Shown here: in pieces, positions 35,926-38,893 of the stretch
How the letters are laid out: each line of letters starts with the position of its first letter
Numbering within the stretch: the first letter of the stretch is position 1
Source: Nephila pilipes
Lineage: Eukaryota
DNA length: 42,476 nucleotides
Assembly (NCBI GenBank): GCA_019974015.1
Contig: BMAW01101096.1
Location: forward strand, 180,200 to 222,675
Direction: 5' to 3'
Made by a program: the position numbers and the translations under genes
The notes under the pieces: model-generated
The model's database searches: none
Told to the model about the DNA's origin: nothing
Seen by the model: only the letters and a program-made list of their open reading frames with translations

Positions 35926-38893
35926 TACAGGGTGTCCACTATACTCTGTTTCCCTTCCTCCCTCTTAAGTTTCGAACGGCTGCAGCTATAGTCATAAAAG
36001 TGGTATCTAGGTACAGTAAAGTGGCTATGCGCTACTAGATGAGTTCCAACTGGTAGAAAATGCGGATTTAGTGTTCCTATCTCAAAAAAAAAGGTATGAG
36101 ATAGGGGTGAAAGTTAATTACAAAGTTGTAAAGCATTATCGATTCAGTACGAAAAAGACACCTAGTGATCATTAATGATAAAAACAGAACACTTAAGACG
36201 CGCATTAGCTTCTTCGTGATTTCCTACACTGTGGCGTTACGAAACAATATCAGAAAGAGAAAACACAACTAGTTATCACAAGAAATCTTTATTTTTCAAT
36301 GTTCCTACTTCTCTCCGTCAACTGAACCTTTGTTTGAACTTATGTTGCACACGTTTTAACATAGTGGATGACATGTTTGCACAAGCATATGTAATGCGTC
36401 GTCGAAGGTCCTCCAATTTCGGTGGATGGAAGCGCATACAACTGCTTTTTTTGAAGTATCAACACAGGAAGAAGCCCAATGTAGTCAAGTCAGGTTAAAG
36501 GGGGGGGGGGCCAACTCTTCGAAACTCCCATATCTAATTAATTTACCCCGAATGTCTCCACCAGGTACTACTTCACCAGTAATGTATTTAATGTCTAGTG
36601 CGAAGACACGCTGTCATGTTGGAACCATACGTTCCGGAGTTGAAGCAACGACAGGTTCTCAACAAAATCGGTTATTAAGTCCAGCAGAAGTTGTAAATAT
36701 CGTAGGTCCGTTTACTTGCCCAGTTAAATACTGGTACAATTAGCCAATTATTGTAAATTCGATATCAAACATTAATCGAAAACTGCATTTGATGTCGAAC
36801 GTCGAAGGAACATGTCGAATTACCATTGCCTAGTAATATGTATTCTGCCTATTGTACATTTCATTCAGCGAAAAGCATGCCTCATCCGTCCACATTGTAT
36901 CTGCCAAGAATGTTGGCTAGACCCCTATCTGGTTCATGACAAAGTTGCAATATGCGTAACGTCTTGCAACATTTCCATTGCAGTAATGCCTTTTGAAGCG
37001 TTGGCCGGAATGGATGAACATAAAATATTCTTAGCATTTCCCAAAAGTGACTTTTTGAGAGGGCACTTTTTTCATTTATCTTTCTTGTGCTTCTGTTTGA
37101 ATATGTAAGGGTGTATGATAATGCATCTTCTGGTTGTACCTGTCATCTTACCTCAGCTGATCTGCTGGATCGAAGTTGGCTTGCACACACATGCAGCCTG
37201 TCACCCTTAGACGTTTCACAACTTTTAGGATGGTTTTCTGTGAATGATGCGGGCTTTCAGAAAAACGTTGCCGATACAACCGCGCTGCCAATTTAGTCTT
37301 ACGCCCTCATTCACCGTAAAGCAGAACCGTCTCATAATATACATTTTCGGAAAATCACTCCATGACCATAAGCTACAACATACAACCCCAAGGAGATATA
37401 TCAGAGGCGATCACACTTAGCAAGTTCGTTAGTGGTCCCCCTTACATCCGGACAAAGTCCTCATTAAAGACATCTGGACTCGTGAGAAAGTGCAAACAAC
37501 ATTTCCGTTTTTCATGAACTTAGACCTTATAGAGTCCGATACTCCTGGAAACCAAGAACACCCCTACATCAGGTGTCCAGTTTAGCAGGTGTCAATTCCT
37601 GCCCCAGTTGGAGTGCTCAGGAACAATAACTGTTTTATCACTTTCAACTATCCATCAAAAACAAAGATTACGTCCCGTGGTTTCAGAAGAGGCATGCTCA
37701 TTTTAATTCAACCTAAAATTTTCGAAGAGAAGAGACAATTAGAAGCTCTAATAAACGTTCGACAAGAACATCGTGTCCGAGGATATTGCTAGCATGAGAC
37801 GAGCACCCAAAATCCTATATTCTAATTGCAATTGTAAGAGCGACAAGCACTTTTTTCGCCTTGTTAATATCAACCTTGGTATTTCAAATTAAAACTTCAG
37901 CGTCTGGACGTTTCCTCCGAAACATCAGGGGATGTTTTTCTAACCCATGCTCCGTGGAGGGGAAGAGAAAATTGTGTGGCCTTGGATGCCGGCGGCTGTT
38001 TTGAACCCTGGACCAAGATTGTTCACCAGACGCTTTTTGCAGTGCTCCTACCAACTAGGCTGAAAAGACGTCTCTTCTGGAAAGTTAGTTAAGGCGTTGA
38101 TGTAGAAGAGAGTCGCTGCATACTCCCCCTCTAGTATCATCTAGATGATAAGAAGAGGAACAATTGATATTTGTTAAGAAGGTTTCTTTTTACAGCCATT
38201 ACTGCAATTGATATACATCCCCTCCCTGTTGAATTGGGTTTTGATTGGGACAATTTCCATTTTGAGTCATCGGCTGTCTCGTATTGAGTGGCGGATTTCG
38301 TTGACATGTGCGCTAGAGAAGGAATATTATTATAGTCGGGATTTATGTGCGTTTTTTTTGTCTTAGTTAAACATACAGAAGCATGTGTTTTGCGTAGGGG
38401 GCATATGCAGTCAGTAGTTATAGGCTGTGCTGCCATCTAGTGTTCAAGTCCTGAGTCACCAATTCGGCGAAAGACATTCTCTCCTCCTCAGGGGAAAGGG
38501 GTAGAATAACATCCCCCGATGCCTCGATACCACTTCTGCGATGCAGGCTCGTTCTTTGTCCGAGAGATAACCTTTTCTCCTCACGTTCAAATTTCTTGAC
38601 GTCACAGTATTGGAAAATCCGAAAAAATACATTTGCCTTTTCAAGTGTTCAGTGTTTATCATTAATGCCCACAAGGTGTCTTCTAGTACTAATTCGATGA
38701 TGCTCTACGACTTTGCAATTCACTTCCCCCATCTCCTACTGTTGTCGAGATAAGAAAGCTAACTAGGGCCCTGTAAGCGATCTTCTCTAGTAGCACTTAG
38801 CCACTTTGCAATACCTACACACCACTTTTATGACTATAGCTGCAGCCTTTCGAAAGTTAAGAGGGGGAAACGGACTTAAGTGAGTATCCTGTA
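35926..38893 (-). mobile_element. Mariner-like element of the same family as 26580-28000, but 2.97 kb long with TIRs of about 200 bp (about 35926-36135 and 38690-38893). It has about 1 kb of non-coding internal sequence between the transposase N-terminus and the right TIR.
   Basis: The left end TACAGGGTGTCCACTATACTCTGTTTCCCTTCCTCCCTCTTAAGTTTCGAACGGCTGCAGCTATAGTCATAAAAGTGGTATCTAGGTACAGTAAAGTGGCTATGCGCTACTAG matches the reverse complement of 38780-38893 and continues more loosely to about 200 bp. It lies 53 bp from the Tc1-like element. Confidence 0.75.
36340..37695 (-). pseudogene. Mariner-like transposase pseudogene inside the 35926-38893 element
   Basis: Minus-strand translations give MPLLKPRDV...FPGVSDSIRSKFMKNGNVV (N-terminus) and RFSESPHHSQKTILKVVKRLRVTGCMCVQANFDPADQLR (second HTH, to be compared with RFEESPHxSTRRxxxELGIS...LHPYKIQLVQxLxxxDxxxR). 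They also give DTMWTDEACFSLNEMYNRQNTYY (to be compared with IIFSDEAHFxLNGYVNKQNCRIW) and VGPPPL*PDLTTLGFFLC*YFKKSSCMRFHPPKLEDLRRRITYACANMSSTMLKRV (to be compared with WPPRSPDLTPLDFFLWGYLKSxVY...LEDNIRRxIxxIxxxMLExV). Several stops and frameshifts are present. The plus-strand track ORFs 36426..36743, 36812..37108 and 37087..37296 are antisense artefacts. Confidence 0.65.

Follow-up and report, generated by a model that had tools for sequence, protein, structure and literature searches.

A decayed Tc1/mariner copy in Nephila pilipes, very probably of the DD41D long-terminal-inverted-repeat clade, with extra DNA in its 5' leader

A clade of Tc1/mariner transposons with long terminal inverted repeats (TIRs) has been described among aphid elements. 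This "LTIR-like" (long-TIR) clade was defined by a length of >2.3 kb and TIRs of >460 bp, was equated with the "Lsra" DD41D elements of Zhang et al. 2016, and includes documented internal-deletion derivatives (Bouallegue et al. 2017, PMC5490172). In a survey of bees, DD41D/Visitor elements measured 1024 to 2258 bp (PMC8472432). Here, we analyzed a 42,476-nucleotide stretch of DNA from Nephila pilipes (GCA_019974015.1, contig BMAW01101096.1, positions 180,200 to 222,675 of the forward strand), which we refer to as the window. A preliminary description had placed a mariner-like element with TIRs of about 200 bp and an oversized body at 35926 to 38893, and had offered two accounts of it: a long-TIR lineage comparable to the inverted-repeat/direct-repeat (IR/DR) type of Tc1-like elements, or a composite element that had captured extra DNA. 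Our analysis indicates that 35928 to 38891 is very probably a single, old and dead Tc1/mariner copy of the DD41D long-TIR clade that carries secondary extra DNA in its leader.

Termini, transposase and relatives of the element

The element proper spans 2964 bp (35928 to 38891) and has the dinucleotide TA on each side, its ends reading TA/CAGGGTGTCC... and ...GAGTATCCTG/TA; in short form, the termini are TA/CAGG...CCTG/TA at 35926/35928 and 38891/38893. The span originally proposed was right, except that it included the 2-bp TA on each side. Most of the window is AT-rich eukaryotic DNA with a G+C content (GC) of 0.24 to 0.33, within which 35926 to 38893 forms an island of about 0.41. The inverted repeats at the termini were confirmed well above chance. 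Using blastn, 35951-36244 was paired with 38874-38592 at 73.6% over 295 columns (E 5e-44), and a global alignment from the extreme ends gave 300 aligned positions with 76.7% identity and a Kimura two-parameter (K2P) distance of 0.28, fading at about 36250 and 38590. The TIRs are about 300 to 320 nt long instead of 200 bp. A repeat search detected outer arms of 96 nt at 84% complementarity and a second 40-nt pair further in.

The transposase gene lies on the minus strand, and the reverse complement of the element, which is its transposase-sense orientation, is referred to as el_rc. A tblastn search of the window with P0001, an intact relative from a Logan assembly and the best one found, recovered amino acids (aa) 17 to 371 from 37405 down to 36324 in four frame-shifted pieces, including the motifs WTDEACF, FQHD and PDLT.L(G)FFL. 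The stitched window protein was 40% identical to P0001 in the first search and 50% identical with an improved stitch. The ATG lies at about 37363, some 330 nt away from the start that had been proposed (about 37695), and the DUF4817 domain follows at 37333-37196. From this ATG to 38592, where the right-hand TIR ends on its inner side, there are about 1.23 kb of non-coding DNA; the large spacer noted earlier thus exists, at this size instead of about 1 kb. On the other side, only about 50 to 70 nt separate the stop codon from the 3'-side TIR, and the relatives are similarly compact there. With its in-frame stops and frameshifts (Table 1), the loss of the third catalytic D and TIR arms that are 23% diverged, the window copy is inactive. 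One of the frameshift sites is a homopolymer of some 11 G residues, which read as C on the coding strand, at about 36500-36511, the site of WPPRSPDL in relatives.

A D-90-D-41-D triad is present in the intact relatives P0001, P0002, P0024 and P0098, the last of which is an Acyrthosiphon pisum protein, and a spacing of 41 was found in 36 of the 38 relatives matched by a motif regular expression. For blastp comparisons we used the published aphid transposases (PMC5490172, supplement 2) as references. The best match of P0001 was Apismar5.1, a long-TIR DD41D transposase (40% aa identity, E 2e-90), followed by the long-TIR DD40D transposase Apismar5.2 (33%), the short-TIR rosa transposases Apismar4.x (28-31%) and DD34D mariner transposases (24-26%). 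We obtained the same ranking for the stitched window protein, for the Araneus protein P0003 and for P0024. On these protein comparisons, the transposase is assigned to the DD41D long-TIR clade (LTIR-like/Lsra; the Visitor/rosa DD41D family in the broad sense).

The structure of the element agrees with this assignment. The TA duplication, the TIRs and the single transposase with an N-terminal helix-turn-helix (HTH) and a DDE/D catalytic domain are those of the Tc1/mariner superfamily, and TIRs of hundreds of nucleotides (about 300-320 nt) together with a length above 2 kb (2964 bp) are those of the long-TIR clade. Rosa and mariner elements have TIRs of about 13-34 bp and a length of about 1.3 kb, whereas the TIRs of the window element measure about 300 nt and DD34D mariner is the least similar reference. 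The initial premise that the family of this transposase normally has TIRs of about 30 bp is true of rosa and mariner, but not of the long-TIR DD41D clade. Relative to the aphid LTIR-like (Lsra) DD40/41D elements such as Apismar5.1, the window element is alike in its N-terminal HTH, long TIRs and length of >2 kb, and its intact relatives are alike in their D-x41-D spacing. The window element differs in that the aphid TIRs are 460-466 nt long, in that transposase identity is only 26-40%, which marks it as a different lineage, and in that it reaches 2.96 kb through about 0.9 kb of extra leader. The short-TIR DD41D elements of the rosa/Visitor type (Crmar2, Apismar4.1) have the superfamily and the TA duplication in common with it, as well as the DD41D triad seen in its intact relatives, and the Apismar4.1 terminus AAGGGTGTCTCA resembles CAGGGTGTCC; however, they are about 1.3 kb long with TIRs of 27-32 bp, and with P0001 their transposases share an identity of only 28-31%, below that of the LTIR references.

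Long TIRs were also found in relatives at the DNA level. Two Araneus ventricosus loci (L001 and L003, GCA_013235015.1) encode AVEN_185408-1 and AVEN_187887-1, DUF4817 transposases homologous to that of the window, and both copies are complete, with lengths of 2091 and 2079 bp and TIRs of 302 nt (87%) and 292 nt (92%). The window element is 64-69% identical to them across both TIRs and the coding region, and a terminal consensus is kept (TA/CAGG(G/A)T..CCACTTA..TCCGTT). The Araneus elements thus have the same TA/CAGG termini, TIRs of about 300 nt and short 3' spacer, but differ in their length of 2.08-2.09 kb, their leader of about 330 nt and their much younger arms (87-92%), as opposed to a 1.2-kb leader and 77% TIR identity in the window copy. 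Among 17 loci from a metagenome scan, none was nearer than L005, the lineage closest to the window element (72% DNA identity). L005 (99% to P0001) and L022 (which encodes P0017) are contigs that open inside the homologue of the inner half of the window TIR, and each closes with an inverted copy of its opening TIR sequence. Further metagenome relatives with CAGGGTG termini are L008 (1750 bp, TIRs of 128 nt, TA at both ends) and L016 (TIRs of 100 nt, TA at one end). CAGGGTG termini and TIRs of about 500 nt were also found in L006, a contig-limited case in which the contig stops at the TIRs and the arms are 100% identical. No relatives were found in collections of viral and prokaryotic genomes.

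Judged from clade membership and from the homologous TIRs of about 300 nt in Araneus, the long TIRs are a feature of the clade that is already published (PMC5490172) and not something acquired by the window copy; for the TIRs, then, the long-TIR lineage was the better of the two original accounts. The clade extends beyond aphids to the spider A. ventricosus and to several sequencing samples, with CAGGGTG termini conserved. An active ancestor would have encoded one transposase with an N-terminal DUF4817 HTH and a D-90-D-41-D core. By analogy with characterized Tc1/mariner transposases, this enzyme would bind the TIRs, cut the element out and insert it again at a TA dinucleotide that is duplicated in the process.

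Two of the loci showed further repeats. At L001, a further pair of inverted repeats (about 330 nt, 74.6%, 2987-3316 and 6866-7162, span 4176 bp) lies outside the Araneus element on both sides, which suggests that this element is nested in a foldback or in another long-TIR element. A marine metagenome contig (L004, ERZ976227 k127_2894516) was considered as a second oversized member. There, the intact DD41D gene P0024 lies within a 4.2-kb span (19-4234) with inverted repeats of about 200 nt and 2.4 kb upstream of the gene. These repeats start with GTTAATTAG and not with CAGGG; they probably belong to a different element, possibly in a nested or composite arrangement, and the contig was not used as evidence.

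Extra DNA in the 5' leader

The size excess lies wholly in the 5' leader. Alignments with the elements of Araneus, L005 and L022 break off at 38544 and restart at about 37400. The distance from the inner TIR end to the ATG is about 230 nt in L005, 275 nt in L022 and 330 nt in Araneus, compared with about 1.2 kb in the window element, an excess of about 0.9 kb over all three related lineages. It is because of this extra DNA that the element measures 2.96 kb and its relatives about 2.08 kb. With a GC of 0.43, the extra segment is element-like and unlike the host background of 0.24-0.30.

A significant inverted repeat was detected inside the segment (47 nt, 77%, 38521-38477 versus 37923-37969). 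Its local score of 19 compared with 10.6 +/- 1.3 in dinucleotide shuffles, none of which reached 19 (0/100), and with its extension it bounds a unit of about 610 bp (37918-38526) that starts 17 nt past the end of the Araneus homology. No Pfam match was obtained in the six frames of the extra segment, and a 99-aa open reading frame (ORF) at 38137-38436 on the minus strand had no homologue among 1.84 billion representative proteins. The spacer gave no blastn match to plasmids, phages or bacterial DNA, resembled nothing elsewhere in the window or in 21 collected loci, and contained no tandem repeats. We also considered a tRNA-derived short interspersed element (SINE), prompted by box A/box B-like stretches seen by eye on the minus strand at about 38060-37990, and rejected it: ARAGORN found no tRNA and Rfam nothing at E<=10. 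An Rfam search of a 241-nt slice was also without a match, and a similar-looking stretch of L022 was likewise negative.

We then compared the leaders themselves. Among the relatives, pairwise alignments scored 28-49 versus about 10 in shuffles, except for the pair L022 and L005 (13.5), but none of these leaders aligned with the spacer above shuffled controls; hence, in the window copy the ancestral leader would have been replaced or would have decayed too far to be detected. Some 50-100 nt before the ATG, the leaders of related elements have a block in common (L001 about 4875-4945, L003 about 3990-4060, L005 about 195-255). By eye, this block comprises an octamer-like motif, ATGCAAAT, and a TATAAAA box, of which the window copy keeps a faint trace at best; it is probably the element promoter.

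Most likely, the extra DNA arose by secondary events in or before the window copy. Of the accounts considered, we slightly favor the nested insertion of a non-autonomous repeat, for which the unit of about 610 bp with its 47-nt inverted repeats is the best candidate; the main alternative would be filler from abortive gap repair. Capture of extra DNA, the other account originally offered, thus better describes the oversize, given that about 0.9 kb of leader is absent in three lineages, but it does not explain the long TIRs. The features of the element are collected in Table 1.

Table 1. Coordinates of the element and its parts in the window
Feature	Position	Strand	Basis and remarks
TA target-site duplication, left copy	35926..35927		Junction AAAAATA/TA/CAGGGTG; same TA/CAGG junction in Araneus copies, L008 and L016
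TIR 3' of transposase (window left end), about 320 nt, begins CAGGGTGTCC	35928..36250	+	blastn, global alignment, homology to Araneus TIRs
Transposase pseudogene, DD41D long-TIR type	36321..37363	-	13 in-frame stops, at least 5 frameshifts, third catalytic D now G; tblastn with P0001
N-terminal helix-turn-helix domain, Pfam DUF4817 (PF16087)	37196..37333	-	E 4e-6 in raw frame, 1e-6 in stitched protein, both above curated cut-off
Short leader just upstream of ATG, still alignable	37364..37402	-	blastn: el_rc 1492-1631 versus L005 258-400 (73%); el_rc 1506 onward versus L001, L003
Extra unalignable non-coding leader segment, about 1.15 kb versus about 0.23-0.33 kb in relatives	37403..38543	-	Homology gap
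Internal inverted repeat, arm 2	37918..37969		Same basis as arm 1
Internal inverted repeat, arm 1	38477..38526		Repeat search; blastn 47 nt, 76.6%
Sub-terminal stretch directly inside 5' TIR	38544..38591	-	Araneus homology persists (blastn: el_rc 1-350 versus L001 4340-4707; el_rc 1-339 versus L003)
TIR 5' of transposase (window right end), about 300 nt	38592..38891	-	Homologous to Araneus 5' TIR and to inner TIR parts opening contigs L005 and L022
TA target-site duplication, right copy	38892..38893		Junction GTATCCTG/TA/CATATAT

Alternative accounts of the repeats and the leader

Two accounts would give the long repeats another origin. A large amount of non-coding DNA separates the transposase gene from one of the repeats, as would be expected if the repeats belonged to an unrelated foldback or miniature inverted-repeat transposable element (MITE) that hosted a short-TIR mariner. 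However, the stop codon lies only about 50-70 nt from the other repeat, the same long repeats, CAGG termini and TA duplication flank homologous genes at the two Araneus loci, and the L005 and L022 contigs begin inside the repeat. Moreover, no internal CAGGGTG terminus was found, and a scan for TIRs with a target-site duplication (TSD) across the 5' leader (el_rc 300-1560) revealed no pair of short TIRs flanked by a TA duplication, the arrangement that the preliminary description had named as evidence for such nesting. We therefore regard a foldback host as extremely improbable. The comparison with IR/DR elements, in which each long arm carries two direct repeats bound by the transposase, fared little better. 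Sleeping Beauty-type Tc1 elements resemble the window element in their inverted repeats of a few hundred nucleotides, a range that includes TIRs of about 300 nt, and in their TA target, but they combine a DD34E transposase with two direct repeats per arm. The transposase here groups with the DD41D type, the catalytic spacing in its intact relatives being 41 and ending in D, and in six arms (from the window element, L001 and L003) the outer 50 nt scored 7-10 against the inner TIR, compared with about 7.4-8.2 (standard deviation 1.1-1.4) in shuffles. Internal direct repeats above shuffled controls were thus not found, and an IR/DR arrangement is very improbable.

The origin of the extra leader DNA is less clear-cut. 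Its element-like GC would fit a leader of about 1.2 kb that is intrinsic to a sub-lineage, such that the canonical element in this host would be about 3 kb and all copies would carry the extra DNA as a regulatory module or decayed second gene; the segment also has no clean insertion hallmarks, and nothing of the ancestral leader can be recognized on either side of it. Yet the leader measures only 230-330 nt in three related lineages, among them the closest, L005 (72% DNA identity), the six frames gave no coding signal and the longest ORF no homologue, and a K2P distance of 0.28 between the arms makes the copy old enough for insertions to have accumulated. An intrinsic leader is unlikely on this evidence. 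Slightly less probable in our view is that the extra DNA is filler or chimeric and replaced the ancestral leader, either through abortive gap repair or through recombination with a TIR-sharing non-autonomous derivative of unrelated interior. Replacement predicts the pattern that was observed, namely leaders of relatives that align mutually but not with the spacer, and internal-deletion derivatives are documented in the clade (PMC5490172). On the other hand, the window element diverges more than any other in the set, so that its leader, being non-coding, may just have decayed until it could no longer be recognized; the significant inverted repeat inside the extra segment, in turn, points to a discrete inserted unit. 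We assign a somewhat lower probability still to the idea that the extra DNA is a mobilized passenger, that is, either an undescribed MITE-like family represented by the 610-bp unit or the leader module of an LTIR sub-lineage of about 3 kb; if this is true, a long-TIR Tc1/mariner element would have captured cargo.

Several observations weigh against the reading of the locus as an old DD41D long-TIR copy with a nested insertion. As far as the clade is concerned, the aphid LTIR-like elements begin with TCACCAATTT or AATGTGTCAA and not with CAGGGTG, and the window copy itself lacks an intact DD41D triad, with the third D replaced by G and the spacing disturbed by indels and frameshifts. The Pfam domain DDE_3 is below threshold even for the intact P0001 (21.1 versus 28.6 bits), although several members of the family have it in their precomputed Pfam domain lists. 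With respect to the leader, a scan for nested elements (TIRs >=13 nt with a 2-10-bp TSD, and direct repeats >=11 nt) returned chance-level hits only; because the copy is so decayed, the lack of a surviving clean target duplication is unsurprising. The mutual alignment of the relatives' leaders, none of which aligns with the spacer, suggests that replacement fits at least as well as simple insertion. Furthermore, the comparison included one copy from the source genome, so that a 1.2-kb leader private to this copy and one typical of the host lineage both fit. An old, dead DD41D long-TIR copy with secondary leader DNA is nevertheless the reading we prefer, and the region is best masked as one decayed element of this kind and not as a new architecture, with little import beyond annotation. 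If the extra leader DNA turned out to be characteristic of the family, or to be a new nested MITE, its bearing on the growth of Tc1/mariner elements and their carriage of passenger DNA would be of modest interest.

Other features in the window

The left end of the element is abutted by a region at about 34700-35850 (minus strand, GC 0.45-0.50) in which Tc1-like DD34E-type motifs were recognized by eye (FSDDSGF, FLQ*DNARAHVA and a C-terminal ...SMPNWVRAILAAGGGNLFY). This suggests that the DD41D element adjoins or lies inside another decayed Tc1-like element; a Pfam search of the region did not confirm the Tc1-like reading.

A second transposase remnant is located at 26729-27319 on the minus strand, in a GC island at about 26700-27900, and is distantly of the LTIR type. 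It comprises the C-terminal half only and is 30% identical in aa to Apismar5.2, its nearest match, and 25% to P0001. We detected neither TIRs nor DNA similarity to the element at 35928-38891. The interval 26580-28000 had been put forward as a copy of the same family with which the element could be compared, but with 25-30% aa identity and no DNA similarity it holds a different, more distant LTIR-like remnant, a lineage that cannot help to resolve the structure. A possible terminus, TACAGGGCG, lies near this remnant at 26639-26647.

A second exact terminal motif, TACAGGGTG, occurs at 40035-40043 on the plus strand, at the edge of a small GC-rich patch, and might mark where another Tc1/mariner-type element or a MITE ends. 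The terminal motif was counted 6 times in the window compared with 3.3 +/- 1.6 by chance, which is not significant. Further along, Rfam matched a full-length 5S rRNA at 40592-40710 on the minus strand (77.5 bits, E 7e-15), with several non-canonical pairs in the terminal helix. It lies directly upstream, on the same strand, of an ORF at 40189-40506 that by eye resembles the C-terminal tail of a reverse transcriptase from a retrotransposon without long terminal repeats (non-LTR). The match is possibly a 5S pseudogene, a chimera of 5S and a long interspersed element (LINE), or a SINE.

An ORF of 194 aa at 8668-9252 (minus strand) has CCHC zinc-knuckle-like motifs and by eye resembles a retroelement gag gene; no homologue was found in the protein collection and no match in Pfam. 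It is encoded by a repeat of which two direct copies, at 2834-3299 and 8776-9252, are 84% identical over 478 nt. Finally, four similar patches of short-period simple repeats, at about 7250-7330, 23940-24030, 32120-32190 and 32970-33045, match one another on both strands.

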